64,000 nucleotides of DNA from an uncultured Ruminococcus sp. (GCA_902785425.1 CACZYP010000001.1:1-64000); one strand, 5' to 3'; numbered from the stretch's first letter, positions 5,212 to 64,000 are shown. The notes: generated by a model not told the origin, from the sequence alone. Made by a program: numbers and translations.

Positions 5212-6072
5212 GAACCTCGCCTGCGGCGAGGTTCTTAAATTGAAAATGGAAAATTGAAAATGGAAAATTGAAAATGGAAAATTGCAGAGTCGCTGCGCTC
5301 CTGATTTTATATTGGTGTTTTCAAGCCGAATAATTATCACTCGGCGGCGAGTGAAGTATGGATTTATGATGACTAATACAAATTCACCTCGCCCAAGGCG
5401 AGGTTCTTAAATTGAAAATGGAAAATTGAAAATGGAAAATTGCGGAGTCGCTGCGCTCCTGATTTTATATTGGTGTTTTCAAGCCGAATAATTATCACTC
5501 GGCGGCGAGTGAAGTATGGATTTATGATGACTAATACAAATCCAACTCGCCGAAGGAGAGGTTCTTAAATTGAAAATGGAAAATTGAAAATGGAAAATTG
5601 CGGAGTCGCTGCGCTCCTGATTTTATATTGGTGTTTTCAAACCGAATGATTATCACTCGGCGGCGAGTGAAGTGTGGATTTATGATGACTAATACAAATC
5701 CAACTCGCCTGCGGCGAGGTCCTTAAATTGAAAATGGAAAATTGAAAATGGAAAATTGCGGAGTCGCTGCGCTCCTGATTTTATATTGGTGTTTTCAAAC
5801 CGAATAATTATCACTCGGCGGCGAGTGAAGTGTGGATTTATGATGACTAATACAAATCCGACTCGCCGAAGGAGAGGTTCTTAAATTGAAAATGGAAAAT
5901 TGAAAATGGAAAATTGCAGAGTCGCTGCGCTCCTGATTTTATATTGGTGTTTTCAAACCGAATAATTATCACTCGGCAGCGAGTGAAGTATGGATTTATG
6001 ATGACTAATACAAATCCAACTCGGCGAAGCCGAGTTCCATAATTTTCCATTTTCCATTTTCAATTTTCCATT
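5212..6072. repeat. Head-to-tail tandem array of the family A element, about 5.4 copies with a 158 bp period. The first unit carries an extra 14-bp GAAAATGGAAAATT. The array ends with an inverted heptamer block aattttccattttccattttcaattttcc.
   Basis: Unit starts fall at 5229, 5401, 5559, 5717 and 5875. Each unit contains the hairpins CCTCGCC-tgcg-GGCGAGG and TCACTCG-gcg-GCGAGTGA plus the core ttgcggagtcgctgcgctcctgatttta. Confidence 0.95.
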
Positions 6073-6080
6073 AAAAAAAA

Positions 6081-6107
6081 GCCACCCACACAAATGTGTG
6101 GAATGGC
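6081..6107 (-). terminator. Terminator downstream of ackA.
   Basis: The hairpin is gccacccacaca…tgtgtggaatggc, followed by 8 Ts on the minus strand. Confidence 0.55.
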
Positions 6108-6130
6108 TTTGGTTTGTTTGAGATTTGAGA

Positions 6131-7339
6131 TTAAAGTGAACCTTCAACGATCGCTTTTGTGTCTCTTGCGATAACGAGCTCTTCGTTTGTCGGGATAACA
6201 AATACCTCGATCGAAGAATCGTCTGCGGAGATCTTGCCGGCGTTGCCGTGGATCATTGCGTTGTTCTTCTCTTTGTCTACCTTTACACCGAGGCAGGAGA
6301 GGTATTCGCAGATCTTTTCACGGAGAGTTACCTGGTTTTCACCGAGGCCTGCCGTGAATACCATGCCGTCGCAGCCGCCGAGAGCTACATAGTAGCCGCC
6401 GATGAACTTTGCGATCTCATAGTAAAGGATCTCATGAGCGAGGTGTGCTCTTTCGTTGCCTTCTTTTTCTGCCTTGGAAACGTCTCTGTCGTCGCTCGAA
6501 ATACCGGAAATACCGAGAAGACCGGACTTCTTGTTGAGCAGGTCGCTCATCTCGGAGGGAGAGAGGTTCTCTTTCTCTGCGATGAATGTTACAACGGAAG
6601 GATCGAGTGTACCTGTTCTTGAACCCATCATGAAGCCGTCAAGCGGAGTAAGACCCATAGATGTGTCGATTACCTTGCCGCCGTCGATAGCTGTAATGGA
6701 AGAACCGTTGCCGATGTGGCATGTGATGAGCTTGAGGTCTTTGATATCCTTGCCCATCATGTTTGCGCATTCGCCGCTTACATAACGGTGCGATGTGCCG
6801 TGGAAGCCGTAGCGGCGGACCTGGTACTTCTCGTAATACTCATAGGGAACAGGGTAGATGTATGCCTTTTCGGGCATTGTGGAATGGAAAGCTGTATCGA
6901 ATACAACGACCTGCGGAAGAGTCTCGCCGAACACTTCTACGCATGCTCTGAGAGCCTGAACGTGACCCTTGTTGTGGAGCGGTGCAAGCGGGATAAGGCT
7001 TTCGATGCCCTTGATGACCTCTTCGTTAACGAGAACGGACTTGCTGAAGATAGCGCCGCCCTGCACGATTCTGTGACCGATAGCCGAAACTTCGGAAAGA
7101 TCGGAGATAACGCCGTACTCGCTGTCTGTAAGTGCGTTCTTTACCTCCATGAAAGCTGCTCTGTGGTCGGGAAGAGTTACTTCCTTCTTGAACTCTTTGC
7201 CGTCAGCGTTTTTGTAGCCTACAAGACCGTCGATGCCGATCCTTTCGCAATTTCCTTTTGCAAGAACCTTTTCGTCCTCCATGTCGATAAGCTGGAACTT
7301 AAGGGACGAGCTTCCTGCGTTGATAACTAATATTTTCAA
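6131..7339 (-). CDS. ackA: Acetate kinase.
   Basis: The translation has (M)KILVINAGSSSLKFQL and conserved ackA motifs throughout. The start is placed at TTG, preceded by AAGGAGAG. Confidence 0.92.
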   Translation of the reverse strand: MKILVINAGSSSLKFQLIDMEDEKVLAKGNCERIGIDGLVGYKNADGKEFKKEVTLPDHRAAFMEVKNALTDSEYGVISDLSEVSAIGHRIVQGGAIFSKSVLVNEEVIKGIESLIPLAPLHNKGHVQALRACVEVFGETLPQVVVFDTAFHSTMPEKAYIYPVPYEYYEKYQVRRYGFHGTSHRYVSGECANMMGKDIKDLKLITCHIGNGSSITAIDGGKVIDTSMGLTPLDGFMMGSRTGTLDPSVVTFIAEKENLSPSEMSDLLNKKSGLLGISGISSDDRDVSKAEKEGNERAHLAHEILYYEIAKFIGGYYVALGGCDGMVFTAGLGENQVTLREKICEYLSCLGVKVDKEKNNAMIHGNAGKISADDSSIEVFVIPTNEELVIARDTKAIVEGSL

Positions 7340-7382
7340 TGGTATTCTCTCCTTGTGCGTTACCGCCATTATTTCATCTATA

Positions 7383-7463: not shown

Positions 7464-9206
7464 TTACAGCGCTTTCGTTCTGATCTCTTCGAGAACGTCC
7501 GAAAGGAACTTCTCAACGCTCATAGCGCCGATGTCGCCCTGCTTTCTCGAACGAACGGAAACAGTATTGGCTTCGATATCCTTGTCGCCGCAAAGGATCA
7601 TGTACGGGATTTTCCGGAGCTGTGCTTCTCTGATCTTGTAGCCGATCTTTTCGCTTCTGTCGTCGATCTCAACACGAAGACCCTTTTCTTCAAGCTTTGC
7701 TTTTACCTCGTTGATGTAGTCAAGGTGTCTGTCTGCGATGGGCAGCAGCTTTACCTGAACGGGAGCAAGCCATGTCGGGAATGCACCTGCGAAATGCTCC
7801 GTGATTACTCCGATAAAACGCTCGATCGAACCGAGAACGACTCTGTGTATCATAGCAGGGCGATGCTTTTCGCCGTCTGCACCGATGTATTCAAGCTCAA
7901 ATCTTTCGGGCAGCTGCATATCGAGCTGTATCGTGCCGCACTGCCATGTTCTGCCAAGTGAATCGGAGAGATGGAAATCAAGCTTAGGTCCGTAGAATGC
8001 GCCGTCGCCTTCATTTATAACGAAAGATTTTCCGAGATCCGTACATGCCTGTTTTAACGTATCCGTAGCAAAATCCCATGTAGCAACGTGACCGAGATGA
8101 TCTTCGGGCATTGTCGATACTTCGATCTGATAGGAAAGTCCGAAAACGGAATAGACCTCGTCAAACAGGTTGATAACATTTTTGATCTCATCTCTCATCT
8201 GCTCCCATGTCATAAATACATGAGCGTCGTCCTGTGTAAAGCAGCGGACACGGAAAAGACCGTGAAGCGCACCCGAAAGCTCATGCCTGTGAACAAGACC
8301 CAATTCGCCGATTCGCAAAGGCAGCTCTTTGTAGGAGTGCGGCTCCGATTTGTAAACGAGCATTCCGCCGGGGCAGTTCATCGGCTTGATGCAGAACTGT
8401 GTGTCGTCTATCATCGTGGAATACATATTCTCGCTATAGTGCGCCCAGTGACCCGATTTTTCCCACAAAGCCTTATCAAGCATTATAGGCGTGGATATTT
8501 CAAGGTAATTGTAGCGCTTATGAACTTCACGCCAGTAATCTATGAGCGTGTTTCTCAACACCATGCCTTTCGGTAGGAAGAACGGAAAACCGGGGCCTTC
8601 GTCCATAAGAACGTACAGACCAAGCTCTTTGCCGAGCTTGCGGTGATCTCTTTTTTTTGCTTCCTCGATCCTTTGCAGGTATTCGTCAAGCTCCGCTTTG
8701 CTCGGATAAGCTACGCCGTATATGCGCTGTAAAGCCGCTTTTGAAGAATCGCCTCTCCAGTAAGCGGAGTTACAGGCTGTAAGCTTTACCGCATTTGCTT
8801 TTACTCTGCCTGTGGAATCAAGGTGCGGTCCTGCGCACAAGTCCGTAAACTCTCCCTGCTTGTAGAAGCTGATAACGGCGTCGTCGGGAAGATCGTTTAT
8901 AAGCTCGATCTTGTACGGCTCGGACTTCATAAGCTCCAAAGCCTCTTCACGGGGCAGCTCAAATCTTTCAAGCTTCAGTTTTTCTTTGCAGATCTTTTTC
9001 ATTTCGGCTTCGATCTTTTCCAGTATCTCCGGCGTGAAGCTGAACGGAGCGTCCATATCGTAATAAAAGCCGTTGTCTATTGAAGGACCTATCGCAAGTT
9101 TTACTTCCGGGTAAAGTCTCTTGACTGCCTGCGCCAGTATATGAGAGCAGGTATGCCAATACGTCCTCCTGTATTCTTCATTTTCAAACGTTGATTTGTT
9201 TTCCAT
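7464..9206 (-). CDS. thrS: Threonine--tRNA ligase paralog 1. It lacks the N-terminal TGS domain and begins at the N2 editing domain (WHTCSH).
   Basis: Class II aaRS motifs and a ThrRS anticodon-binding C-terminus are present. AAGGAGG sits 8 nt before the M18 start. Confidence 0.9.
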   Translation of the reverse strand: MENKSTFENEEYRRTYWHTCSHILAQAVKRLYPEVKLAIGPSIDNGFYYDMDAPFSFTPEILEKIEAEMKKICKEKLKLERFELPREEALELMKSEPYKIELINDLPDDAVISFYKQGEFTDLCAGPHLDSTGRVKANAVKLTACNSAYWRGDSSKAALQRIYGVAYPSKAELDEYLQRIEEAKKRDHRKLGKELGLYVLMDEGPGFPFFLPKGMVLRNTLIDYWREVHKRYNYLEISTPIMLDKALWEKSGHWAHYSENMYSTMIDDTQFCIKPMNCPGGMLVYKSEPHSYKELPLRIGELGLVHRHELSGALHGLFRVRCFTQDDAHVFMTWEQMRDEIKNVINLFDEVYSVFGLSYQIEVSTMPEDHLGHVATWDFATDTLKQACTDLGKSFVINEGDGAFYGPKLDFHLSDSLGRTWQCGTIQLDMQLPERFELEYIGADGEKHRPAMIHRVVLGSIERFIGVITEHFAGAFPTWLAPVQVKLLPIADRHLDYINEVKAKLEEKGLRVEIDDRSEKIGYKIREAQLRKIPYMILCGDKDIEANTVSVRSRKQGDIGAMSVEKFLSDVLEEIRTKAL

Positions 9207-9381
9207 TTTGTTTTCCTCCTTGTCTCCGGCTTGATGTGAAACATAGTTATCAAGCACAGTAATTATAAAAATGTTGATAAAAACTGTTTAGTTTTTATGA
9301 TTTAGGGTAAAAAAATACCGGCAGCAGACAGCGGTGAGATACTCAAAGACCGATCATCGGAAAGCGCAGGGTATTATCGGT

Positions 9382-9508
9382 GTGACGGGTTGTTACGGGT
9401 TTTCAGCGTTTTCTAACTCTTTTTACTAAAAATATAAATGGTAAATAATGGTATATAGAAATAGTAAAAGGTTTTGGAAATTCACAAAAACCCGTCACAA
9501 CCCGTCAC
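9382..9508. repeat. Long inverted repeat with an approximately 22-bp stem, gtgacgggttgttacgggtttt / aaaacccgtcacaacccgtcac, around an 82-nt AT-rich loop between the thrS paralogs.
   Basis: It is directly visible, with one mismatch between the arms. Confidence 0.8.
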
Positions 9509-9602
9509 AGCTCAAAGATCAATGCTTCCGATGTACCGTTCAGGATGAATACCGCATCGTTTTGCTGTCATCTGTGCCGTTAGTAACACATTAAAGAGTA
9601 GC

Positions 9603-11543
9603 TTACAGTGCCTTCGTTCTGATCTCTTCGAGAACGTCTTCAAGGAACTTCTCAACGCTCATAGCGCCGATGTCGCCCTGTTTTCTCGAACGAACGGAAA
9701 CAGTATTGGCTTCGATATCCTTGTCGCCGCAAAGCAGCATGTAAGGAACCTTTTCAAGCTGTGCTTCTCTGATCTTGTAGCCGATCTTTTCGCTTCTGTC
9801 GTCGATCTCGACACGAAGACCCTTTTCTTCGAGCTTTGCTTTTACCTCGTAGATGTAGTCAAGGTGTCTGTCTGCGATGGGCAGGAGCTTTACCTGAACG
9901 GGAGCGAGCCACATCGGGAATGCGCCTGCGTACTTCTCGATAAGAAGCGCAAGTGTTCTCTCGTAGCAGCCGATAGATGTTCTGTGAATGATGTAGGGGT
10001 TCTTTTTTGTACCGTCTTTGTCAACGTATTCCATGCCGAACTTCTCTGCGAGCATCTGGTCGATCTGTATGGTGATGAGCGTATCCTCTTTGCCGTGAAC
10101 GTTCTTGATCTGAATGTCGAGCTTCGGACCGTAGAATGCAGCTTCGCCGATACCGATCTTGTATGTTACACCGAGATCGTCAAGGATAGTCTTCATGATG
10201 CCCTGAGCTTCGTCCCACTGCTCTTCGGTGCCGATGTACTTTTCACGGTCGGTCGGATCCCACTGCGAGAAGCGGTAGGAAACATCGTCCTGAAGACCGA
10301 GCGTTGTGAGCATGAATGTGGTAAGTTCGAGGCACTTCTTGAACTCGTCTGCAAGCTGATCGGGACGGCACATAAGGTGTCCCTCGGAGATGGTGAACTG
10401 ACGAACTCTGATAAGACCGTGCATCTCGCCGCTTGCTTCGTTTCTGAACAGGGTAGAGGTCTCGTTGTAGCGCAGCGGAAGATCTCTGTAAGAGCGCTGC
10501 TTGTTGAGATATGCCTGATACTGGAACGGACATGTCATCGGGCGGAGAGCGTAGACCTCTTTGTCCTTTTCCTCGTCGCCGAGAACGAACATGCCGTCTT
10601 TATAGTGATCCCAGTGACCCGAGATCTTGTAAAGGTCGGACTTTGCCATGAACGGAGTTTTGGTGAGAAGCCAGCCTCTCTTCTGCTCCTCGTCCTCAAC
10701 GAAACGCTGTAAAAGCTGGATAACTCTTGCACCCTTAGGAAGCATGATCGGCAAGCCCTGACCGATATAATCTACGGTCGTGAAAAGCTCCAGCTCACGG
10801 CCGAGCTTGTTGTGATCTCTCTTCTTTGCCTCTTCGAGCATAGTGAGATGCTCTTCAAGCATAGACGCTTTCGGGAAAGCGGTTCCGTAAACTCTGCAAA
10901 GCTGAGCGTTGTTTGCGTCGCCTCTCCAGTAAGCGCCTGTACATGCGGTGAGCTTGAATGCTTTGAGCGGAGAAACGTTCATAAGGTGAGGGCCTGCGCA
11001 AAGATCGGTAAAGTCGCCCTGCTTGTAGAACGAGATTTTCTCGCCCTTATCGGAATGCTCCTTTGCAAGCTCTACCTTGTAAGGTTCGCCCATCTCTTCA
11101 AGAAGCTTTACAGCCTCATCGGGAGCAAGCTCAAAACGCTCAACTTCGATGCCGCTCTTTACGATAGCCTTCATCTCTTTGGTGATAGCTTCAAGGTCTT
11201 CGGGCGAGAATGCCTTTTCTACGTCGAAATCATAGTAAAAGCCGCCGTCGATAGCAGGACCGATAGCAAGCTTTGCGTTCGGGTAAAGATGCTTTACAGC
11301 CTGTGCAAGAACGTGCGAAGCGGTATGCCAGAATACCTTCTTGCCGTCCTCATCGTCAAAGGTTACGAGTTCAAGCTTGCAGTCCTTTGTAAGCGGAGTG
11401 CGGAGATCGCATACAACGTTGTCGATGCGTGCAGCGCAGCAGGACTTGTAAAGACCCATGCTTATAGATTTTGCGATTTCAGCAGCGGTAATGTTTTCTT
11501 CATACTGATTAACAACTCCGCCTTTAAGTTCAACATTGATCAT
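9603..11543 (-). CDS. thrS: Threonine--tRNA ligase paralog 2, full length with TGS, N2 editing, catalytic and anticodon-binding domains.
   Basis: The N-terminus is MINVELKGG…, with HTASHVLAQAV and class II motifs. It has an RBS GAGGTG. Confidence 0.93.
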   Translation of the reverse strand: MINVELKGGVVNQYEENITAAEIAKSISMGLYKSCCAARIDNVVCDLRTPLTKDCKLELVTFDDEDGKKVFWHTASHVLAQAVKHLYPNAKLAIGPAIDGGFYYDFDVEKAFSPEDLEAITKEMKAIVKSGIEVERFELAPDEAVKLLEEMGEPYKVELAKEHSDKGEKISFYKQGDFTDLCAGPHLMNVSPLKAFKLTACTGAYWRGDANNAQLCRVYGTAFPKASMLEEHLTMLEEAKKRDHNKLGRELELFTTVDYIGQGLPIMLPKGARVIQLLQRFVEDEEQKRGWLLTKTPFMAKSDLYKISGHWDHYKDGMFVLGDEEKDKEVYALRPMTCPFQYQAYLNKQRSYRDLPLRYNETSTLFRNEASGEMHGLIRVRQFTISEGHLMCRPDQLADEFKKCLELTTFMLTTLGLQDDVSYRFSQWDPTDREKYIGTEEQWDEAQGIMKTILDDLGVTYKIGIGEAAFYGPKLDIQIKNVHGKEDTLITIQIDQMLAEKFGMEYVDKDGTKKNPYIIHRTSIGCYERTLALLIEKYAGAFPMWLAPVQVKLLPIADRHLDYIYEVKAKLEEKGLRVEIDDRSEKIGYKIREAQLEKVPYMLLCGDKDIEANTVSVRSRKQGDIGAMSVEKFLEDVLEEIRTKAL

Positions 11544-11639: not shown

Positions 11640-11990
11640 AAAAACAAAAACTGCGCCCCTTACAAAAGGGACGCAGTAATACTTTACCCGTGATTCCACC
11701 CAGATTCGGCATTATACAAAAAAGTATAACACCCTCATTGCGACGTTTAACGGAGTCAACCGTTCCGGCTTGTTACTGCCGGACTCTCGGAGGTGGTGTG
11801 CTTATCTGCTGTATTTACAAGCGCTCCCAGCCAATGACGCTTGCTCTCCGGAAATACCTCTGCAAAAAGCCGTCCTCGTCAACGATTTCGATCTATTGAG
11901 TTCATATTATCACAATCGGCAGCGGTTGTCAAGCATAAATAAAAGGATTTTAAGAAAGGTTCAAAAAAAGCGACTAAATGGAGCACTGTT
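11640..11990 (-). promoter_or_regulatory. T-box riboswitch leader of thrS paralog 2.
   Basis: In the minus sense the T-box core AATCTGGGTGGAATCACGGG is immediately followed by the terminator hairpin ctgcgtccc-ttttgtaa-ggggcgcag and a U-run (plus coordinates 11651-11710). Confidence 0.55.
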
Positions 11991-16487: not shown

Positions 16488-16493
16488 TAAAGC

Positions 16494-17437: not shown

Positions 17438-17483
17438 AAGCGGCAAAGCCGCTTCTGAAATTGTCCATTGTCAATTGTCAATT
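17438..17483. repeat. Family A fragment (hairpin gcggcaaagccgc followed by gaaattgtccattgtcaattgtcaatt). It supplies the last codons and the TGA stop of coaBC.
   Basis: It matches the heptamer end of the family A elements. Confidence 0.6.
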
Positions 17484-22445: not shown

Positions 22446-22497
22446 CCAATTGAAAATTGACAATTTCGGAAGCGCTTCGTGCTTAATTTATATTAGT
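22446..22497. repeat. Family A fragment (left end plus core hairpin ttcggaagcgcttcgtgctt).
   Basis: It matches the family A core. Confidence 0.7.
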
Positions 22498-24215: not shown

Positions 24216-24344
24216 AAGAATACCTCCTTATCTTGAAAACCAAGACTACATAAATAAAATAATATTATATCTTATTCGATACAAAATCGAATGATATACA
24301 GAAAAAATTAGTGAAAATCACTCTAAAAAGGGTAAAAAAATAGC

Positions 24345-43933: not shown

Positions 43934-44013
43934 GATAAATTTCTCCTTTTTCTTTAATCGTATTGTTTATATTATTTTTAATTTGTTTTCATGTATCGAA
44001 TTTCAATCTTCAA

Positions 44014-44616: not shown

Positions 44617-44632
44617 CTATATCGATCCTTTC

Positions 44633-45661: not shown

Positions 45662-45681
45662 CTGCTCACCTCGCTTTTGAA

Positions 45682-45708
45682 TTAGCACTCTGTTGCGCTG
45701 AGTGCTAA
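45682..45708. promoter_or_regulatory. CIRCE operator with a perfect TTAGCACTC-N9-GAGTGCTAA, placed between the promoter and the hrcA start.
   Basis: It reads ttagcactctgttgcgctgagtgctaa. Confidence 0.92.
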
Positions 45709-45718
45709 TCTACTTTTA

Positions 45719-45746
45719 ATTATACATTTATACTGCGATTTGTCAA
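45719..45746 (-). promoter_or_regulatory. hrcA operon promoter TTGACA-16-TATAAT.
   Basis: The reverse complement reads ttgacaaatcgcagtataaatgtataat. Confidence 0.65.
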
Positions 45747-45782
45747 GGGATTTATTCAAGAAATTTATTAATTATTTGTAAA

Positions 45783-45809
45783 AAAGCACTTAGCGCCGGT
45801 AAGTGCTAA
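45783..45809. promoter_or_regulatory. Second, degenerate CIRCE-like palindrome upstream of the -35.
   Basis: It reads aaagcactt-agcgccggt-aagtgctaa. Confidence 0.5.
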
Positions 45810-45821
45810 GCCCTTATAAAT

Positions 45822-45972
45822 AAATGGAAAATTGAAAATGGAAAATGGAAAATTGCAGAGTCGCTCCGCTTCTGATTTTATAAGTGTGGAGTGTGGATCT
45901 TAGATAGCTAATACAAATCAACTCGGCTAAGCCTGTTCCTCAATTTTCTATTTTCCACTTTCAATTTTATTT
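45822..45972. repeat. Complete family A element with GAAAAT-type heptamers at both ends.
   Basis: It reads aaatggaaaattgaaaatggaaaatggaaaattgcagagtcgctccgcttctg … caattttctattttccactttcaatttt. Confidence 0.85.
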
Positions 45973-46109
45973 TGTCGTTGGTTCATTAAATTTATGTTGA
46001 TTCGGAATGTTTTTGTGTTTATGTGCGTATTGAAAACACCGGACGGGAGTAGTATAATAGTTTTGCTTGAAGGAAAAGCATATATAAAAAAGAAAAGAGA
46101 TTGTGTAAA

Positions 46110-47414: not shown

Positions 47415-47420
47415 TCTTTT

Positions 47421-47582
47421 AATGTGGAAAGTGGAGTGTGGAATGAAGAAGTCGCTTCGCTCTTAGATTATTAAAACTGACTGCATATTTCTCGGCAGAA
47501 AATTGGTTGTAGTTTTTCAAGAACTGATATAGATTCAACTCGCCGCAGGCGAGTTCCGAAATTTTCCATTTTCAATTTTCCT
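47421..47582. repeat. Complete family A element. Its left end is GTGGAAA-type and its right end is an inverted GAAAAT-type.
   Basis: It reads aatgtggaaagtggagtgtggaatgaagaagtcgcttcgctc … caactcgccgcaggcgagttccgaaattttccattttcaattttcc. Confidence 0.85.
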
Positions 47583-47693
47583 CGTTCTGCATTTAATGAA
47601 AATCTATTGCAAATAAAAATTTTTGTGCTATAATAAATTTCGTACTGTATTGTATCCGGCGCTGATGCCGGAATGATAACAAGGAGGATAAAA

Positions 47694-48365
47694 ATGAATA
47701 GTAAGAAGAAAGATATCCGTTGGATGGTAAGTGTTGCACTTATGGCGGCGATCATCGTGCTTTTGGCTAATACGCCTCTCGGTATGATACAGCTGCCTGT
47801 GATCAAGGCGACAACCGTACACATTCCCGTGATCATCGGCGCAGTGCTTCTCGGACCTCTTGCAGGTGCGATCCTCGGCGCAACGTTCGGCATCTGCTCC
47901 ATCGTGAGCAATACGATGACGCCTACACTGCTGTCGTTCGCATTTTCTCCGTTCCTCAGCACAACAGGTCCCGTAGGAGCTTTAAAGGCTCTGTGGATCG
48001 CTGTAGGCTGCCGTATCCTTATCGGTGTTGCAGCAGGCTGGCTGTGGATCCTTCTCAAAAAGGTAAAGGTCCCTGCTCCCGTAGGTCTTGCAATAACAGG
48101 CTTTGCAGGCTCTATGGTGAACACAATTTGCGTTATGGGAAGCATATACTTCCTGTTCGCTCAGCAGTATGCAGAGGCTAAGGAAGTAGCTCTTTCAGCT
48201 GTTTTCGGCCTTGTAATGACTACTGTTACGGCGTCGGGTATCCCCGAGGCGATAGCTGCTGCTGTTCTTGTGGACGTTATCGGTTTTGCACTTCTTAAGG
48301 CAATGCCTCAGATAATGCCCGAAAAGAAGAGCGACAGCGAGATCGTTCAGGCAGAAGCGAAATAA
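47694..48365 (+). CDS. ECF transporter S component, likely for pantothenate given the adjacent coaX.
   Basis: It is a 6-TM small integral membrane protein with an RBS AAGGAGG. Confidence 0.6.
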   Translation: MNSKKKDIRWMVSVALMAAIIVLLANTPLGMIQLPVIKATTVHIPVIIGAVLLGPLAGAILGATFGICSIVSNTMTPTLLSFAFSPFLSTTGPVGALKALWIAVGCRILIGVAAGWLWILLKKVKVPAPVGLAITGFAGSMVNTICVMGSIYFLFAQQYAEAKEVALSAVFGLVMTTVTASGIPEAIAAAVLVDVIGFALLKAMPQIMPEKKSDSEIVQAEAK

Positions 48366-50412: not shown

Positions 50413-53400
50413 GTGAAGTGTGTGTCTGATCGTGACGATATTGATGTAGTTAAAACAGCGGAGAAAAACTCCGCCGACGATACAATACGTCAGAATTACC
50501 CCATAGATGATACCGAAAACGGTACGAAAAAGAAGCTCGGTTTTCTCAACATGGTAAAAAAGATGCTTTCGACGGACGAAGATCCCGAAGCCGAAAGCAG
50601 TGAGTCCGTAAGCGAGGACGACAATATGTTCGGCTCTCTTATCGGGCGTCTGAAAAAGCCGTCGGAGAAAAGCGGGGAAGCACCATCTTCCGAGAGCTTC
50701 GATTCCGATACACCAAACGATAAACAGACATTCGATAATATAGCGGCAGAAAACAGCAAGCCAAAGCAAGCTGAAAAGCCGCAGCCCGAAAAGGAGAACG
50801 ACTCCGCCGAAGAGGAAGAGCTTCTTATGATAGATGCTTTCTTAAGCGGCGAGGAATATACTCCGGAGAAAAAAGAAGAACCCGACTTGAGCGGCGCTTT
50901 TGAAGAGGAAGAGGTCGTATTCGTTGATTTTGACACCGACGATGATGCGCAAGAGGTGAGCGGTGATGATACGCCTGAAAGCAAGGACGAAACTGAACCT
51001 GCTGAAACAAGCGGCGAGGCTGACTCTGCCGCTGAGGATAGTGTGCTCACTGAAAAGACCCGGCTCGCCGAACAGACTGATAATAGCGAGGGTGAAGCTG
51101 CCGAAGTCTCTGATGAAGAAAAATCAGATCCCGAAGCTGCGCTCGAAAAACAAGTCGAGAGTGAAGATATTGAAAACGCTGATGCTTCCGAAAAGCCGAA
51201 CGATGCTGATAGCAGTAAGAGTGACGGGGAAGCGGCAGAAATAGAAGAGGACGAAGAGTTCGTTCTTGAAGAAGAAAAGCCCTTCGACGAGGAAGACGAT
51301 CTTTCGGCGCACGCAGAGGAATCCGATGATTTCAGCGACCTTTCCACAATTTTTGAAGACGATGAGGAAAAGTCGGAGAAGAAAGAAAAAGAGCCCGATA
51401 CGAAGGAATACGAAGCCGAGCCGATCGACATAGACAACGGCGAAAGCGGCGAAGATCCCGAAAGCGATATAGCCGAGGACGATTCCGACAAAGCAGAAGA
51501 AACCGAAAAATCCGAAGAAACATCGGATAATAAGGCAGAGGATAAGACGGAAGAAAAAACCGAGGACAAGACCGAAGAGAAGTCCGATGAAAAATCCGAG
51601 GAGAGATCCGAAGAGCCTTCTGCCGAAAAAGAAGAAAAAGAGGAAGAACAAGGCAAGTCCGAGGGAAAAACTGAAGAAAAGCCCGAAGACAAGCCGCAGG
51701 AAAAGCTTGAAGAGCCTGCTTCCGAAGAGGCAAAGACCGATAATGAATCGGCTGACGATAAGGCGTCGGAAGAAAAAGAGCCGGAGAAGAATCCCGCAAA
51801 CGGAGCAAAGGTCTTTTTCGGACGTGTGAAGTCTAAGCTTGCAGAGCTTTGGAACGCCAAGAACGAGCAGGAAAAGGCTGCCGATAATAATACGGAAGAC
51901 CCGTTCGTATCGGAGCTTATTTCCGACACAAATACGGAAGAAAAAACCGAAACGGCTTCCGAAGATACTGCGCAGGCAAATTCCGAGGAGAAATCGGAAG
52001 AAAAGCCTGCGGAAGCTTCCGAAGAGAAGCCTTCCGAGGAAAAGCCGGAAGAAAACACCGATAAAAAACCGGAAGAGCAGCAAAAAGCCGAAGCCGATGA
52101 GCAGAAGCTGTCGGAAGGTTCAGCTGTAGACGCACCGTCTGAGAAAACTCAAAAGGATACGGAAACAGACGCTTCCGAAGAAACAAAGTCCGAAGCAGCG
52201 ACCGAAAACGACGTCGCCGAGGACGAAAAGGACGATAAGACAGAAGAAGATCAGACGGAGCGCAAAGTTCCGATGATCTCCGTTATCAAGAACGAAAACG
52301 TTACAAAGACGGAGTTTGACGAAGAAAAGCTCAGAGGCAGCCTTAACGTTATCGAACGCAAGGCTACCGATGTTCTTACAGACGAGCAGCGCCGTGAGAT
52401 CGAGCAGAGCAAGCGTGAGCTTGAAAAAGTGAGCGAGCTTGAAGAAAAAGCAACCGCCGAGCGTGAGGAGCTTCGCCGTGAGAAAGAGCTTCGCAAGGCT
52501 AAAGAAGCGGAAGCTGCAAGGTCGATCGTCACAGAGCTTGATGTTGGCGGATATCGTCCCGAAGACAGGAAAAACTCCATCAAGTTCCCGACAGGTAAGT
52601 TCAGCGATTCGGTAAGAGCCGAATATGAATGTATCGTCAACTACAACCGCATGATAAGCGTTTCGACCGACGAAAACCTCATCAAAGAGATCAAAAAGGT
52701 CGAAGCCGAGAGCAGCACTCCCGCAGAGCAGCCGAAAAAAGAAGCTGAGGCTGTTGCCGAGTCGGGAGAAAGCAGTGCAAACGAGATACTTAAAGAAGCC
52801 CGTGATTACGAAAGAAATCACGATAAGGTAGAAAGCCTGGGCAACAAGCTCGATTATCAGGATAAGAAAAATCCCGAGCCTGTTGAGTACAGAACTGAAA
52901 CGGATGACGCCGAGGTAAAGAGTTATCTGACTAACAGACGTAAATCCGATTTCCTTACGTTCGGCATCACGGCAGGACTTACGGCCGCAGCGTTTATCTT
53001 CTCGCTGTTTGCAGCTAAGTTCACGGTAGGCGCAGGCACGTCTGCTGCTGCCGGTCCGCAGAGAATATTTGCGCTGATAAATCTTCTGCTGTACGCAGGC
53101 GCTGTATTCTTCTGCAAGGATATGATAATAAGCGGTCTTATGCCGCTCAAAAAGTTCAAGGCTACTCCCGACACGGGCGTTGCACTGGCGAGTGCGGCGG
53201 CGGCGCTGCAGTCTTTGCTTGCGCTCATAACGCCGAAGCCTTTCATGACGCAGGGACTTAACGTGTATACGCTTGTTGTTATGCTTGCACTTACACTGTT
53301 CACTGCGGGCAGATACTTAAATTCCGACAGAGCTTTGTCGAACTTCCGTTTCGTTTCCGATTCGGAGCAGAAATATGCAGGTAAGTTCTTTACCGACGCA

Positions 53401-54633
53401 AGAACTGTAGCAAAGCTTCTGAGCGGTACAAAGAACGAGAAAACAGAGTTCTCGTTCCAGAAGAAAACAGCATTTCTTTCTCACTTTGTGAGACTTTCCA
53501 ATGCCGAAGATCCCGGCGACAAGCTTGCCGCATCGTTCTCGCTTGCGGCTCTCATAGCAGCTGTATTCGCCGCATTGATCGCAGGCATTATGTCAAAAAG
53601 TTTCTTTGACGCAATATCGGTTATTTGCATCATGCTTTGCGCAGGCATACCGATAAGCTCAAGAACGCTCGGCTCATGGCCGCTGAGAAAGCTCGCAAAG
53701 CGTGCTCTTGTCAACAAGTCGATGGTTGTAGGTTATCCTGCAGTTGAGACGTTCTCCGAGAGCGCAGCTGTAATGATCGACGCCAAGGATCTTTATCCGG
53801 CAGGCTCGATCGAGATAACACGCTCCATCAAATATGACAGCATTCATTGGCAGAACGGCATATACGCTGCGGCAGCTGTTACACTCGCTGCAGGCGGAGC
53901 TGTTTCGGGCGTATTCGAGCAGCTTGTCAAGGATAACGGCCAGTTCAGCATACCTACCGCCGAGGGCGTAATGTATGAAGACAACAAGGGTCTTCTCGGC
54001 TGGGTAAACGGCGTACGTGTTCTTGTGGGCAACAGACAGCTTCTTCTGAGCCATGTCGTTCCGGTTGTTTCCGAGGGTCAGGACGATGAATATAAAGCAA
54101 ACGGCGACGAACCGCTTTATATCGCATACGGTCAGAAACTCGTTGCGGTAATCACGGTTCGATACTCGGCAAGCCGACGTGTTTCCGATACGCTCAAGCG
54201 CATGGAAGCAAGCGGAATGAGCCTGCTTGTCCGCACAACGGACGCAAATATCACAGCCGAGCGCATCTCGAAAGATTTCGGCGTGAGAAATCAGAACATA
54301 AAAGTTCTTGAACAAAAGGTATTTAACTACATTCGTGACGAGATGGTCGGCAAGGAGCGCACATCGCCTGCGTATATCGCAACAAAGGGCGGCGTTACTT
54401 CGTTCGGGCTTGCGGTCAGCGAATGCGTTCAGACGAAGCGTGATATCTCGCTCTCAACCGCAGTGGAGATAGCAGGCACGCTTATCAAGATGCTCATAAT
54501 CTGTGCGATCGTTCTCTTTGCGGGAATACATCAGATCGGCGCAGTACAGCTCTTCATCTTCTCGCTTATGTGGGCAGCCGTAGTTCTCTGCGCTCCCGCA
54601 CTTGTTCAGAAGGTACAGGGAGCGAAACACTGA
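50413..54633 (+). CDS. Giant two-part protein of 1406 aa. The N-terminus is an approximately 820-aa polyacidic low-complexity region, and the C-terminus is a membrane domain resembling a catalytically degenerate P1B-type (heavy-metal) P-type ATPase.
   Basis: The tail aligns by eye to CopA-type signatures, but every catalytic motif is altered. CPC in the TM6 equivalent becomes CAG (MLCAGIPISS), DKTGT becomes DAKDL (VETFSESAAVMIDAKDLY), TGDN becomes TDAN (LLVRTTDANITAERISKDFGV), and the A-domain is shortened with no TGES. The alternative GTG start at 50422 follows AAAGGGG. Confidence 0.7.
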   Translation: MKCVSDRDDIDVVKTAEKNSADDTIRQNYPIDDTENGTKKKLGFLNMVKKMLSTDEDPEAESSESVSEDDNMFGSLIGRLKKPSEKSGEAPSSESFDSDTPNDKQTFDNIAAENSKPKQAEKPQPEKENDSAEEEELLMIDAFLSGEEYTPEKKEEPDLSGAFEEEEVVFVDFDTDDDAQEVSGDDTPESKDETEPAETSGEADSAAEDSVLTEKTRLAEQTDNSEGEAAEVSDEEKSDPEAALEKQVESEDIENADASEKPNDADSSKSDGEAAEIEEDEEFVLEEEKPFDEEDDLSAHAEESDDFSDLSTIFEDDEEKSEKKEKEPDTKEYEAEPIDIDNGESGEDPESDIAEDDSDKAEETEKSEETSDNKAEDKTEEKTEDKTEEKSDEKSEERSEEPSAEKEEKEEEQGKSEGKTEEKPEDKPQEKLEEPASEEAKTDNESADDKASEEKEPEKNPANGAKVFFGRVKSKLAELWNAKNEQEKAADNNTEDPFVSELISDTNTEEKTETASEDTAQANSEEKSEEKPAEASEEKPSEEKPEENTDKKPEEQQKAEADEQKLSEGSAVDAPSEKTQKDTETDASEETKSEAATENDVAEDEKDDKTEEDQTERKVPMISVIKNENVTKTEFDEEKLRGSLNVIERKATDVLTDEQRREIEQSKRELEKVSELEEKATAEREELRREKELRKAKEAEAARSIVTELDVGGYRPEDRKNSIKFPTGKFSDSVRAEYECIVNYNRMISVSTDENLIKEIKKVEAESSTPAEQPKKEAEAVAESGESSANEILKEARDYERNHDKVESLGNKLDYQDKKNPEPVEYRTETDDAEVKSYLTNRRKSDFLTFGITAGLTAAAFIFSLFAAKFTVGAGTSAAAGPQRIFALINLLLYAGAVFFCKDMIISGLMPLKKFKATPDTGVALASAAAALQSLLALITPKPFMTQGLNVYTLVVMLALTLFTAGRYLNSDRALSNFRFVSDSEQKYAGKFFTDARTVAKLLSGTKNEKTEFSFQKKTAFLSHFVRLSNAEDPGDKLAASFSLAALIAAVFAALIAGIMSKSFFDAISVICIMLCAGIPISSRTLGSWPLRKLAKRALVNKSMVVGYPAVETFSESAAVMIDAKDLYPAGSIEITRSIKYDSIHWQNGIYAAAAVTLAAGGAVSGVFEQLVKDNGQFSIPTAEGVMYEDNKGLLGWVNGVRVLVGNRQLLLSHVVPVVSEGQDDEYKANGDEPLYIAYGQKLVAVITVRYSASRRVSDTLKRMEASGMSLLVRTTDANITAERISKDFGVRNQNIKVLEQKVFNYIRDEMVGKERTSPAYIATKGGVTSFGLAVSECVQTKRDISLSTAVEIAGTLIKMLIICAIVLFAGIHQIGAVQLFIFSLMWAAVVLCAPALVQKVQGAKH

Positions 54634-54652
54634 CAAAAAGTGCGGCGTTATA

Positions 54653-54683
54653 TAAAAGTGCGGTCTTATGACCGCACTTTTAT
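54653..54683 (+). terminator. Terminator after the giant gene.
   Basis: The hairpin is aagtgcggtc-ttat-gaccgcactt, followed by ttatc. Confidence 0.6.
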
Positions 54684-54685
54684 CA

Positions 54686-54925
54686 ATGGAAAATGGAAAA
54701 TTGAAAATTGAAAATTGCGGAGTCGCTGCGCTCCTGATTTTATATCAGTGGTTCCTTAGTTTATTCAGACTAAATAGTTATCTCACGGCAGTGAATAAAG
54801 TATGGTATTAGGAGGACTAATACAGATTCAACTTTCCACACTTCACATTCCACATTAAAAAACAGGAGCTAAGCGACTCCGAAATTGTCCATTATCAATT
54901 GTCAACTGTCAATTGCCAATGGTAC
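54686..54925. repeat. Long compound family A element of about 240 bp. It includes the internal module ttattcagactaaatagttatctcacggcagtgaataaagtatgg and a second inverted end module.
   Basis: It is visible, and the same long form occurs at 60888-61073 and 63742-64000. Confidence 0.85.
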
Positions 54926-55643: not shown

Positions 55644-56437
55644 AGAACGGTTCAGTAAAGCTTGACAATACGGAAATGTACTACGTTTCTTTCGGCAGCG
55701 GCGAAAAAACGCTTATTGTTCTGCCCGGCCTTTCAGACGGGCTTATGACAGTCAAGGGCAAAGCACTGCTTCTTTCAAAGCCGTATAAGCCGTTTTTTAA
55801 AGAGTACACCGTATATATGTTCAGCAGAAAAAACGATATGCCGAGCGGCTATTCCATAAAGGATATGGCGGCGGATCAGGCGAAAGCCCTGAAAACTCTC
55901 GGAATTGAAAAGACTTCTGTGCTCGGAGTATCGCAGGGCGGTATGATATCACAGTGCTTTGCGATAGACTATCCCGAGCTTGTCGAAAAGCTTGTTGTGG
56001 CAGTGTCTGCTCCGTATGCAAACAAGACTGTTACGGAAAACGTCAGCAGGTGGATAGAGTACGCCAAAGACGGAGATCATAAGAACCTTATGATAGACAC
56101 CGCCGAAAAGGGCTACTCGCCGCAGTATCTTAAAAAATACCGCAAGTTCTATCCGTTTATAGGCTTGTTTGCAAAACCGTCCGATTACGGCAGATTTTTG
56201 AAAAACGCCGAGGCTATACTTCGCTTCGATGCTTTATCCGAACTTGAAAACATCAAATGTCCGACACTGATAATAGGCGGAGATATTGATGCAACAGTCA
56301 CCGCCGAGGCTTCATATGAGATGCATGAGCATATTAAGGGCAGTGAGCTGTATATGTATGAAGGACTCGGTCATGCGGCTTACGAAGAGGCGAAGGACTT
56401 TTATGATAGAGTGTTCGGCTTTATAATTGACAATTGA
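55640..56437 (+). CDS. Alpha/beta hydrolase fold protein.
   Basis: It has the nucleophile elbow GVSQGG. The last codons (…IIDN) and the TGA stop are supplied by a family A heptamer block. Confidence 0.75.
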   Translation: MKNGSVKLDNTEMYYVSFGSGEKTLIVLPGLSDGLMTVKGKALLLSKPYKPFFKEYTVYMFSRKNDMPSGYSIKDMAADQAKALKTLGIEKTSVLGVSQGGMISQCFAIDYPELVEKLVVAVSAPYANKTVTENVSRWIEYAKDGDHKNLMIDTAEKGYSPQYLKKYRKFYPFIGLFAKPSDYGRFLKNAEAILRFDALSELENIKCPTLIIGGDIDATVTAEASYEMHEHIKGSELYMYEGLGHAAYEEAKDFYDRVFGFIIDN

Positions 56438-56462
56438 CAATTGCGGAAGCACTTTGTGCTTG
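56423..56462. repeat. Family A fragment (left end gacaattgacaattgcggaagcactttgtgcttg).
   Basis: It is visible. Confidence 0.75.
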
Positions 56463-60887: not shown

Positions 60888-61073
60888 AATGGAAAATTGA
60901 CAATTGACAATGGACAATTGCGGAAGCGGCTGCGCCGCTTGATTTTATATTAGTTTATTCAGAACTTAATAGTTATCTCATGGCTGTGAATTTGGGATAG
61001 CTAATATAATCCAACTCGGCGAAGCCGAGTTCCATAATTGTCAATTATCAATTGTCAATTGTCAATTGATGAA
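60888..61073. repeat. Long family A element. Its end runs into the tmcAL start region.
   Basis: It reads ggaaaattgacaattgacaatggacaattgcggaagcggctgcgccgcttg … aactcggcgaagccgagttccataattgtcaattatcaattgtcaattgtcaattg. Confidence 0.85.
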
Positions 61074-62306: not shown

Positions 62307-62308
62307 AT

Positions 62309-63559
62309 ATGGAACTTTACGAGAATGAACAGAAGCCCCAGAGAGCGCTGCTCATAAGCGTTGATTACGGCGCATTTGACGCAGAAGCTTCGATGGAGGA
62401 ACTATATGCGCTCGCCGAAAGCGCAGGCGCAGAGGTAGTCGGCTCGATGATACAGAAGCTTGATAAGCCTATCGGTGCAAGTTATGTCGGCAGCGGCAGA
62501 CTTGAGGAGATAGCCGAGCTTTGCAAAACGCAGGAGATAGATCTTATAATCGCCGATGACGAGCTTACTCCTGTACAGATAAGAACGATTGAAGATACGG
62601 CAGACGTTCGTGTTATCGACAGAACTATGCTGATACTCGATATTTTTGCGCTAAGGGCAAACTCAAAAGAGGGCAAGCTGCAGGTAGAAACGGCGCAGCT
62701 TCGCTATATGCTCCCAAGACTTACCGGTAAAGGCATACAGATGTCTAAGCAGGGCGGCGGTATCGGCACAAGAGGTCCCGGCGAGACGAAGCTTGAAACA
62801 GACCGCCGCCATATAAGGCGCAGGCTCGACGCTCTCGGCGAAAAGCTTGACGAGATAGAAAAGCGCCGTGAGCAGCTTCGCCAAAGAAGAAAAAAGGACG
62901 GAGTTATCACCGCCGCTATAGTCGGCTATACTAATGCAGGAAAGTCTACGCTTATGAATTTCCTGACCGATGCAGGAGTGCTTGAAAAGGATCAGCTTTT
63001 TGCAACGCTCGATCCCACTTCCCGTGCGTTGAAGCTTCCGAACGGCGTGAGCGTTATGCTCATAGATACGGTCGGCTTCGTCCGCAGACTGCCGCACCAG
63101 CTTGTAAAGGCTTTCCGTTCAACTCTTGAAGAAGCCGCAAGCGCCGACATCATCATAAACGTGTGCGATGCATCGAACGAAGAGGCTTTGCTGCATCTTG
63201 ATGTTACGCAAAAGCTTCTTGAAGAACTCGGCTGTGCCGATACGCCCGTTATCACGGTGTTCAATAAAAGCGATCTGATAGAAGACCCGTCGATCATTCC
63301 GAATATTTCAAAAGGCGTTCGCATAAGCGCCAAAAAGGGAACGGGCATAGATGCGCTGCTTACGGCTATTGAGGATAATCTCCCCGTAAGAATGCACCGT
63401 GTAAAGCTTATGCTGCCGTTTGCAAAGGCAGGCATTTCCGCCGAGATACGCAAAAGCGGAACGCTGTTTTCGGAAGAATACACGGCGGACGGCATTGAAG
63501 TCGATGCGCTCGTTGACGATATACTATATGCCAAAGTCAAGGAGTTTGCGGAGGAATAA
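62309..63559 (+). CDS. hflX: GTPase HflX.
   Basis: It has an HflX N-domain and a G-domain (GYTNAGKST, DTVGF, NKSD). Confidence 0.93.
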   Translation: MELYENEQKPQRALLISVDYGAFDAEASMEELYALAESAGAEVVGSMIQKLDKPIGASYVGSGRLEEIAELCKTQEIDLIIADDELTPVQIRTIEDTADVRVIDRTMLILDIFALRANSKEGKLQVETAQLRYMLPRLTGKGIQMSKQGGGIGTRGPGETKLETDRRHIRRRLDALGEKLDEIEKRREQLRQRRKKDGVITAAIVGYTNAGKSTLMNFLTDAGVLEKDQLFATLDPTSRALKLPNGVSVMLIDTVGFVRRLPHQLVKAFRSTLEEAASADIIINVCDASNEEALLHLDVTQKLLEELGCADTPVITVFNKSDLIEDPSIIPNISKGVRISAKKGTGIDALLTAIEDNLPVRMHRVKLMLPFAKAGISAEIRKSGTLFSEEYTADGIEVDALVDDILYAKVKEFAEE

Positions 63560-63561
63560 CT

Positions 63562-63744
63562 ATGGATATTCGTGTAGGCGATATTCTTACGCTTAAAAAG
63601 CCGCACCCGTGCGGAGGGAAAGATTTCCTCGTCACCCGTGTAGGCATGGATTTTAAGATACAATGCAAAAGCTGCGGCAGAGAAGTAATGGTGCCGAGAG
63701 CGAAGATAGAAAAGAACATTAAATCAGTCCAAAGGGCGGATTAA
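63562..63744 (+). CDS. DUF951 family small protein.
   Basis: It contains GDILTLKKPHPCGG…CKSCGREV. The stop TAA is the first triplet of the following family A element. Confidence 0.7.
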   Translation: MDIRVGDILTLKKPHPCGGKDFLVTRVGMDFKIQCKSCGREVMVPRAKIEKNIKSVQRAD

Positions 63745-64000
63745 TTGACAATGGATAATTGACAATTGACAATTGCGGAGTCGCTTCGCTCCTTTCTTTT
63801 AATGTGGAATTTGGAAAGTGGAAAGTGGAATGTCGGAAGCACTTCGTGCTTGATTATATTAGTGTTTTCGGACTTAATAGTTATCTCACGGCAGTAAATA
63901 AAGTGTGGTTTTTGAGATAACTAATACAATCCAACTCGCCGCAGGCGAGTTCCGCCATTCGCCATTCCACTATCCACATTTCACATTCATAAAAAGGGCG
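63742..64000. repeat. Long compound family A element (GACAATT-type left end, a second GTGGAAA block with hairpin aagcac-ttc-gtgctt, and an inverted GTGGATA/GTGGAAT right end). It may continue past the window edge.
   Basis: It is visible. Confidence 0.85.

Follow-up and report, generated by a model that had tools for sequence, protein, structure and literature searches.

What kind of element fills the gaps between the genes of an uncultured Ruminococcus sp., and how did it come to lie there? We analyzed a stretch of 64,000 nucleotides (GCA_902785425.1, CACZYP010000001.1:1-64000; hereafter the window), in which a preliminary description made from the sequence alone had listed 16 loci of an intergenic repeat with ends built from tandem heptamers, here called family A. 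The copied unit was found to be a single end module of about 60 bp. We consider it probable (roughly 0.6) that family A consists of lineage-specific, recently expanded, non-coding and non-autonomous mobile repeats, in the style of repetitive extragenic palindromic (REP) doublets forming hairpins (REPINs), bacterial interspersed mosaic elements (BIMEs) and miniature transposable elements with inverted repeats (MITEs). A mobile repeat is preferred to a host regulatory code because conserved non-repetitive parts recur at unlinked sites, and because of the nesting, decay, change in unit number, density and absence from sister lineages that are described below.

All 16 loci are present at the coordinates first given, and a sequence profile and a tandem-repeat search agree on them. 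The nhmmer profile, built from seven full copies aligned with MAFFT, matched only these 16 loci in the window and nothing in coding regions, and Tandem Repeats Finder (TRF) reported period-7 arrays at every locus. The preliminary description had allowed that module order might be lost on proper alignment; the order was identical in all seven full copies. Counts for 68.5 kb refer to the window together with the rest of the rumen metagenome contig (European Nucleotide Archive (ENA) ERZ28613972, STEW19-1 scaffold_954); the rest of the contig, read from record L100, yielded three extra loci shortly past the window. Using a strict array criterion (21 nt with at most one mismatch at period 7), 17 clusters were found in 68.5 kb, as compared to none in 30 Markov simulations. 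The corresponding criterion at periods 5 and 8-11 gave no clusters in the same 68.5 kb, and the period-7 criterion gave none in 114 kb of related genomes. The core TTGCGGRR was observed 25 times against 10.2 expected. Family A occupies 17 of 34 intergenic gaps, 31% of the intergenic bases and 4.8% of all bases. The family had first been called apparently novel. No Rfam family matched at the gathering score, a threshold of E up to 1 gave only a chance small-RNA match overlapping one element, and literature string searches for the core and array strings returned no occurrences.

Each module consists of about four heptamers starting with AAT, an NNGG junction, a GC hairpin (6-9 bp, loop of 3 nt) and a tail rich in T. 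The tail reads (T/G)GATTTTATATTAG, also written (T/G)GATT(T)TATATTAG, and has 4-7 T within its first 10 nt. The heptamer consensus is AAT[T/G]GA[A/C] or of the AATGTGG type. AAT occupies positions 1-3 in approximately 95% of 131 heptamer units, among which the commonest words are AATGGAA (27), AATTGAC (27), AATTGAA (21) and AATGGAC (11); a second dialect uses AATGTGG, AAAGTGG, ATAGTGG and AATGGCG, and the three heptamer dialects have only AAT in common. The last heptamer-like word ends in G (AATTGCG, AATTATG, AATGGCG, AATGTCG) and is followed by G-A. Array length is nearly constant, at about four units in phase with the hairpin. This regularity suggests that some protein reads the arrays, either the mobilising enzyme or a host factor.

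The ends had been described as inverted and built from heptamers, which is correct, and as comprising a right end of its own, which is not. In an alignment of all ends, the right end (CTAATACAAATCC, the AACTCGCC hairpin and inverted heptamers) is the left-end module inverted, and all left ends align with all reverse-complemented right ends as one module. The 29 distinct modules carry about ten stem sequences, with pairing kept in all. Stem types include GGAG(T)CG/CGCTCC, AAGCAC/GTGCTT, AAGCGGC/GCCGCTT, AACTCGCC/GGCGAGTT, AACTCGGC/GCCGAGTT and AACCTCGCC/GGCGAGGTT; in the case of AACTCGCC/GGCGAGTT versus AACTCGGC/GCCGAGTT, both sides of the stem are swapped. Dialects and hairpin types combine freely, any with any. 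Two facing modules, with or without a middle hairpin, make a foldback of 130-190 bp. The middle module (60 nt) is itself a hairpin with compensated changes in the alignment (TTATCTCA/TGAGATAA, GTTATC/GATAGC, TTATCA/TGATGA). Folding of the foldbacks was strong relative to shuffled sequences (z -8.65 as single-stranded DNA (ssDNA), and -6.7 to -8.7 as RNA on either strand), and that of solo hairpins modest or weak (z +0.9 to -2.9). TGA or TAG is present in 68 of the 131 forward words and in 4 of 131 on the opposite strand; as a step of 7 nt shifts the reading frame, three of these words supply a stop in every frame.

Several other readings of the module sequence were tried and set aside. A promoter (TTGCGG as -35, TATATT as -10) would have a spacer of 17-22 nt that varies with stem length, and the TTGACA-17-GACAAT promoter matches of a scan are an automatic by-product of the word AATTGAC. 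The CsrA GGA motif, HutP UAG-N4, the DnaA box (TATCCAC, G dialect) and the Spo0A box each suit one dialect only. A peptide coded in the middle module is not conserved across copies.

The claim that every copy has the same layout was not borne out: solo modules, a convergent pair, a short foldback, nested composites and a tandem array all occur, and some copies lack parts. The 16 loci are as follows.

100-146, minus strand: degenerate solo module, AATGGAC AATTGAC followed by CCGC and a broken AACTCGCC hairpin; begins at the T-run end of the native terminator (147-181) of a macB-like gene; strains L117, L119 and L120 carry this module too.
5212-6072, plus strand: five tandem 158-bp units (TRF 5251-6034, 5.0 copies, 95%; nhmmer E 1e-42 to 1e-52), each in the order heptamer array, TTGCRG-GAGTCGC hairpin, TGATTTTATATT, middle hairpin, AACYTCGCC hairpin; closed by an inverted heptamer array (6041-6072) that abuts the T-run of the ackA terminator.
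17438-17483, minus strand: solo module, AATTGAC x2, AATGGAC, TCAG, AAGCGGC-TTT-GCCGCTT and GATATTGTATA; RNA fold z -2.9; the coaBC stop codon (17471-17473) lies within the array.
22446-22497, plus strand: solo module between convergent genes, with an AAGCGC-TTC-GTGCTT hairpin containing a G-T pair and the tail AATTTATATTAGTG.
24371-24457, plus strand: decayed element, four heptamers but no GC hairpin, lying between the two copies of a 26-bp direct repeat (24344-24369, 24458-24483).
28299-28424, no single strand: convergent module pair, plus 28299-28347 (AAGCAC hairpin) and minus 28361-28424 (GGAGTCGCTTCGCTCC) around an A/T-rich centre; begins 5 nt past a zapA-like stop; RNA fold -50.5 kcal/mol, z -8.7.
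30551-30595, plus strand: decayed solo module of the G dialect, ATAGTGG x4 and a truncated GAGTCGC core, 14 nt past a U32 peptidase stop.
32769-32798, minus strand: heptamer array only (AATGGAC AATTGAC AATGGAT AATGGAG), abutting a truncated family-B MITE end and directly upstream of the spoIIE ribosome-binding site.
35139-35206, plus strand: solo module 2 nt past the spoIIE stop, a weak hairpin followed by TTTTTT; z +0.9.
39523-39652, plus strand: short foldback of two inverted modules without a middle part, between co-directional CpXC and response-regulator genes; nhmmer E 9e-25; RNA z -6.7 and -8.7 on the two strands.
45822-45972, plus strand: foldback with a shortened middle part, in the gap between divergent hrcA and Na-H exchanger genes.
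47421-47582, plus strand: full foldback 6 nt past the exchanger stop, left array of the AATGTGG type, right array AATTGAA/AATGGAA.
54686-54925, no single strand: composite of a plus-strand element without hairpin B and with a G-dialect right array (54686-54857) and an inverted solo module (54858-54925); starts directly after the native terminator 54650-54685.
56423-56462, plus strand: solo module, AAGCAC-TTT-GTGCTT; z -1.5; a hydrolase gene ends in ..IIDN* with its TGA (56435-56437) inside the array.
60888-61073, plus strand: full foldback with four-unit C-dialect arrays at both ends, an AAGCGGC hairpin, a middle hairpin and an AACTCGGC hairpin; nhmmer E 2e-44; ssDNA fold -39.6 kcal/mol, z -8.65; the next gene runs from 61074.
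63742-64000, plus strand: nested composite of an outer C-dialect module (63742-63801) and, after its T-run, a G-dialect full foldback (63802-63990); the outer array starts at the DUF951 stop codon, and the outer inverted end lies past the window, extending to about 64050.

Solo modules are thus found at 17438 (minus), 22446, 30551, 35139, 56423 and 63742, and full foldbacks at 45822, 47421, 60888, 63802 and L100 14976-15165. The nested pattern of 63742-64050 is seen again at 54686-54925 and at L100 12806-13262. Three of the listed loci do not fit the full description: the array at 32769-32798 stands alone beside the truncated end of another MITE, and the copies at 100-146 and 24371-24457 are degenerate, being classed, like 30551, as decayed. 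The window and the assembly of another sample (L104 9137-10000) differ in the tandem cluster, with five and four units, respectively, which reflects either true copy-number variation or assembly collapse.

Copies lie directly past stop codons, or else past a T-run that belongs to a terminator or to a further module. Arrays start 0-14 nt past a stop at 28299, 30551, 35139, 39652 (minus), 47421 and 63742, and at the T-run end of a native terminator at 146 (minus), 6072 (minus) and 54686. All seven G-dialect arrays follow a hairpin and T-run, or a bare TTTT after a stop (47421). The placement is not strictly intergenic as first proposed: four genes have their stop codon within an array (56435-37, 17471-73, 63742-44 and that of prfA, just past the window), and the C-termini read ..(I)DN*. 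Solo modules share the orientation of the preceding gene in 9-10 of 10 cases, and full copies are on the plus strand in 8 of 9, irrespective of the direction of neighbouring genes. The genes flanking the copies share no common function, and those of the window are all ordinary housekeeping genes. The contig, with a GC content of approximately 47%, is from a spore-forming member of the Clostridia, with SpoIIE, an hrcA-grpE-dnaK-dnaJ operon and dockerin proteins; named DnaK relatives are labelled Acutalibacteraceae, Ruminococcaceae or Clostridia. Cumulative GC skew climbs over the entire window.

The hairpin and tail have the form of an intrinsic terminator, defined as a GC-rich stem of at least 5 bp, a loop of 3-8 nt and at least five T in the 8 nt after the stem. 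A consensus terminator scan listed module hairpins in both directions, at 54719, 54880 (minus), 60924, 61031 (minus), 63777, 63837 and 63951 (minus). Entered from outside, each end would present stops in three frames and then a hairpin with a U-rich tail; the stops would end translation, and the hairpin and tail would weakly end transcription, on either strand. Copies flush with or overlapping gene ends would be tolerated because the ends carry their own stops and terminator. Judging from its sequence, an element at a gene 3' end would thus do no harm and would probably act, weakly and in both directions, as a terminator or insulator. When a full copy is transcribed as part of an operon, stems of about 28-70 bp would be expected. 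Of the functions suggested in the preliminary description, terminator or insulator is plausible given the terminator scan and the position at gene 3' ends; integration as a regulatory code is not favoured, since sister lineages with DnaK 89-96% identical do without the family.

In the assemblies of other samples with 99.4-100% identity, the same copies were found at the same sites, and the count of units in the tandem cluster (four versus five) was the sole difference noted. In strains 98.5-99.7% identical, short-read contigs break within arrays, as expected because the repeat is present in high copy. Around dnaK, family A was absent from lineages with DnaK 89-96% identical, both by profile and by array search of 114 kb of non-redundant sequence. 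These sister lineages are, at 96%, the two lineages L086/L087 and L105-L108, together with L110 and L111, L088 and L109 at 93%, and L089-L091 at 89%; they share the unrelated repeat families B and C. At the only junction that is cleanly orthologous, the gap between the CpXC and response-regulator genes measures 18 bp in L086, versus 153 bp here, of which 130 bp is element, and by the simplest reading the element was probably gained in this lineage. We also scanned 185,579 species representatives, the source genome not being among them, with the pattern AATTGCGGAN{12,18}TGATTTTATA. Among the 84 matches listed, 83 were chance matches having neither arrays nor hairpins, and only L015, a Clostridia metagenome-assembled genome (MAG), was real. 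It has the same architecture with the heptamers ATTAGGA/ATGAGGA and other stems, and shares the AATTGCGG junction and the TGATTTTATA tail.

The comparison with L086 (DnaK 96%) also showed a rearrangement: the hrcA-grpE-dnaK-dnaJ operon and the Na/H exchanger are each inverted (window 39656-47694 versus L086 7343-15429). The family-A copies 45822 and 47421 lie at two of the three inversion breakpoints. The L086 lineage has an extra SMI1/SUKH gene between dnaK and dnaJ.

The heptamer vocabulary had been taken as a novelty of the family, a view that database searches overturned: cyanobacteria, Parabacteroides, Treponema and a gut scaffold also have intergenic arrays of these words. BLAST searches of plasmid and phage records with the arrays found (AATTGAC/AATTGAT)n in Sphaerospermopsis, Annamia and Planktothrix plasmids, and other BLAST matches placed (AATTGAA/AATGGAA)n in the rumen spirochaete Treponema saccharophilum and, directly between the priA stop and the next start, in Parabacteroides distasonis. 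The human-gut scaffold MT839237 carries an inverted array pair, stop-(AATTGAC)4-21 nt-(AATTGTC)5-start. When whole elements and the core were compared with plasmid and phage records, arrays matched and the core did not, and two patterns gave no matches in viral contigs. A scan of Joint Genome Institute (JGI) data with the pattern AATTGCRGAGTCGCTNCGCT returned eight matches, mostly chance occurrences in coding sequence (including L096); L092 and L093 share the module grammar. L093 (Ga0209743_1000159, Gram-negative) has dense arrays, together with modules of the form [AATnnnG]n-G-..TCGCT(G/T)CGCTC..-T-run.

The word AATTGAT is TAATTGA in another phase and differs by one base from TAACTGA. MacGregor 2015 (PMC4679880) describes TAACTGA direct repeats from Beggiatoaceae, from 15 cyanobacteria and from 5 Bacteroidetes; they frequently lie at start codons, are missing at the same sites in close relatives, and have spread with "no mechanism evident". 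Arrays of GGGAATC, often as inverted pairs, are described in Xanthomonas by Rehm 2015 (PMC4692102), and heptamers upstream of Nostoc recF and recO in the Nostoc recF/recO preprint. A binding protein for heptamer repeats is postulated, without being identified, in both MacGregor 2015 (PMC4679880) and the preprint. No Firmicute host is named in the portions available of the heptamer-repeat reports PMC4679880 and PMC4692102. The family-A words fall into this cross-phylum class of heptamer direct repeats (PMC4679880, PMC4692102). The class (short tandemly repeated repetitive (STRR) sequences and TAACTGA repeats; PMC4679880, PMC4692102) resembles family A in its tandem 7-nt words, two to six per set, lying in intergenic regions beside start or stop codons, and in being absent at the same sites in relatives and patchy across phyla, both of which are seen here. 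In those reports the arrays are free-standing, whereas family A joins them in fixed phase to a junction, hairpin and tail.

In organisation, family A is closest to REP, BIME and REPIN repeats (Bertels & Rainey 2011, PMC3116915). As in these, the basic unit is a short extragenic imperfect palindrome (20-40 nt there), found as singlets, as inverted hairpin-forming doublets and as tandem mosaic clusters, comparable to the five 158-bp units; target duplications are absent, the repeats lie at gene 3' ends, and links to termination and mRNA stabilisation are shared. However, REP sequences have a GTAG-type head, in place of which family A has the junction NNGG-A (TTGCGG-A, ATGG-A, TCGG-A). About four tandem heptamers come before each of its palindromes and a conserved T-rich tail comes after, the sequences are not similar, and the REP group belongs to Proteobacteria whereas the family-A host is a Firmicute. 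No gene for a REP-associated tyrosine transposase (RAYT; Y1 HUH) is found within the window.

The MITE assignment of the preliminary description was right in that the family is real, modular and MITE-like: terminal inverted repeats (TIRs), a size of 50-500 bp, non-coding sequence and many copies are all present. A fixed-length target-site duplication is missing, and no transposase or repeat-reading protein was identified in the 68.5 kb. At 18 of the 19 copies, no flanking duplication of fixed length or position was found, the longest shared flank words being 5-7 nt; the sole exception is the 26-bp repeat at the decayed copy 24371.

Further likenesses are looser. Dense intergenic foldbacks of 100-200 bp with subtypes and modular deletions also characterise the Correia/NEMIS elements of Neisseria and, in Streptococcus pneumoniae, RUP and BOX, of which BOX has internal tandem units in variable number. 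Correia elements work as terminators or promoters and are processed by RNase III. They differ in their fixed 26-bp TIRs and TA duplications, and none of the three groups, all listed in Delihas 2011 (PMC3184786), has heptamer-array ends or sequence similarity to family A. The 158-bp units do not form a CRISPR array, being repeated whole without unique spacers. The small dispersed repeats (SDRs) of Nostoc punctiforme, from a different organism and phylum, are said to be tiny hairpin repeats found inserted in other repeats, their genomes abounding in heptamer arrays, a likeness of description only.

If family A is mobile, the enzyme would be encoded elsewhere in the genome and act in trans, and the heptamer words would travel as part of the module. 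We lean towards a single-strand (HUH/RAYT-like) route as a better fit than DDE cut-and-paste, because there are no target duplications, the ends are centred on hairpins and full copies show a plus-strand bias (8 of 9). Several observations weigh against mobility or its details. No mobilising gene, transposase or recombinase is present among the genes of the 68.5 kb, and neither a target-site duplication nor a defined target could be derived. An insertion-polymorphism check had been proposed; among strains 98.5-100% identical it gave no empty site, every site seen being occupied or its contig broken in an array. The sister comparison covers the dnaK neighbourhood only, and the 8:1 strand bias comes from one contig. 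Solo hairpins such as 35139 (z +0.9) and 56423 (z -1.5) are weak, so that terminator activity is a prediction. Finally, L093 shares both heptamer words and the core TCGCTKCGCTC, which could mean a conserved recognition function and not a purely selfish one.

In a broader, distinctly tentative reading, the hairpin module is the vehicle of heptamer direct repeats in general. A cross-phylum mobile system would then exist in Clostridia, in L093 and possibly in cyanobacteria and Bacteroidetes. Heptamers phased on AAT, kept in register with the conserved core GG-A..TCGCTKCGCTC..T-run, would be recognised by a dedicated protein, which would copy the module to sites just past stops or terminators. If true, it would explain both the spread of heptamers between phyla and their placement at gene boundaries. 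Some further detail of L093 belongs here as an observation: its arrays, at 760-1200, 2340-2552, 5310-5430 and 5711-5858, comprise AGGCTGGG x34, CCTCTGT x28 and CCTGAAC x21, and GTAG-headed REP-type palindromes (TGTAGGGTGGGCTGCGCCCACC...) lie beside its heptamer-plus-core modules.

The same data bear on a host or cross-phylum regulatory device, which we regard as unlikely. The arrays would be period-7 sites for an oligomeric RNA- or DNA-binding protein that tunes termination, read-through, translation or mRNA decay, and would owe their spread to being useful. HutP, a reader of UAG-N4 repeats beside a terminator, provides an analogy. The arrays are uniform (about four units, AAT in some 95% of the 131, phase with the hairpin kept), which is consistent with such a reader, as are the same words beside stop or start codons in Parabacteroides, the gut scaffold and cyanobacteria, the grammar and core shared by L093, and the frequent end of arrays 10-20 nt short of a start codon; a binding protein is also proposed in MacGregor 2015 (PMC4679880) and the Nostoc recF/recO preprint. 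However, sister lineages with DnaK 96% identical manage without the elements at the same genes, the flanking genes are functionally unrelated, the dialects share AAT only, and the window holds no candidate protein. Decay, nesting and copy-number change moreover look selfish.

Family A could also be an ordinary MITE, moved by the DDE transposase of an insertion sequence (IS) elsewhere, with the arrays as multiple subterminal transposase-binding sites. Long terminal inverted repeats, small size, absence of coding sequence, many copies and a stable foldback fit this, and active IS elements are implied by the classical family-B MITE (TIRs, TTAA/CTAA flanks) in the same genome, alongside the probable IS end at the left edge of the window. 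Against these stand the flanks, as 0 of 19 copies have fixed-length direct repeats, and the ends, whose words and unit numbers can differ inside a single copy (47421, 54686). Solo ends occur often and keep a consistent orientation relative to the upstream gene, and no IS with these ends was seen in 68.5 kb. We consider a DDE-moved MITE quite unlikely.

An origin without transposition appears improbable. In this case, slippage at stalling hairpins or terminators would make the arrays, and recombination or gene conversion between terminators would spread and homogenise the modules. In many bacteria no repeat unit is more prone to slippage than the heptamer (Mrazek 2007, cited by PMC4679880), indels in 7-nt steps and changes in unit number are known, the arrays adjoin terminators, and a 26-bp direct repeat surrounds the 24371 copy. 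Slippage leaves unexplained the conserved junction, tail and 60-nt middle module at 19 unlinked sites, the nested complete copies and the near-constant array length of about four units. A metagenome assembly artefact, to which the differing count of 158-bp units might point, has a negligible chance of being correct, as the same elements occur at the same sites in the independent assemblies ERZ28613972, ERZ27280357 and ERZ1029115 and in several Logan runs, from different samples and assemblers.

Small intergenic foldback repeats and heptamer arrays are both known kinds of sequence. What appears to be new, against the literature searched, is their combination: in a Firmicute, and amounting to some 5% of the sequence, heptamer arrays keep phase with the conserved hairpin and tail to which they are fused, and together these form the ends of an element that looks mobile. 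Cyanobacteria have been known for decades to carry heptamer direct repeats, and giant sulfur bacteria, Bacteroidetes and Xanthomonas were added later, without an accepted function emerging. Family A offers a testable model in which heptamer arrays travel on a mobile module, and may show how such arrays spread; species with and without it form a natural contrast for finding the enzyme or binding protein. It would also be an example of a selfish repeat that carries its own three-frame stops and terminator. For assembly and annotation of rumen MAGs, it matters that contigs break at the arrays and that four genes end in an array-encoded ..DN*.

Two other repeat families were noted. Family B is a separate classical MITE of about 268 bp with TIRs GGAAGCACTGATTAAATC / GATTTATTCAGTGGTTCC and TTAA or CTAA flanks, located at 31262-31529 of the window, as a truncated end at 32718-32762, at L100 12895-13160 and at the end of L105, the last sites including a 268-bp copy inserted at CTAA within one family-A copy (L100). 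It also occurs in a sister lineage without family A. Family C comprises several GC-rich palindromes (GGGGCATTTTCTGCCAAAATGCCCC, AAACAGTCCGCCGGACTGTTT), at 35261-35388 and 41677-41804, which are mutually inverted, and at the end of L107; it is common to sister lineages.

At the left edge of the window, positions 1-98 are probably the end of a strain-specific insertion, perhaps an IS. Strains L117, L119 and L120 (99.4-99.7%) diverge exactly after CCAAGGGCGC and continue into whiA. At this point the window stops, and so do the ENA contigs.

Threonyl-tRNA synthetase is encoded by two genes in tandem (entered for the window as 7464-9257, 9603-11543, 11664-11891 (minus) and 9381-9509). The T-box leader upstream of the first reaches just 70 bits, the gathering score being 93. 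In the gap between the genes, a 129-bp inverted repeat made of doubled 10-mers (TGTGACGGGTTGTTACGGGT ... ACCCGTCACAACCCGTCACA) takes the place of a recognisable T-box.

The gene at 50413-54633 encodes a 1406-aa protein with long acidic and lysine-rich repeats of 12-nt period and no Pfam match on record, and a 1419-aa counterpart exists in a sister lineage. Its native terminator (54650-54685) is an inverted pair of AAGTGCGGT, the 9-mer that also forms the Haemophilus uptake signal core; with one occurrence, this is probably coincidence.

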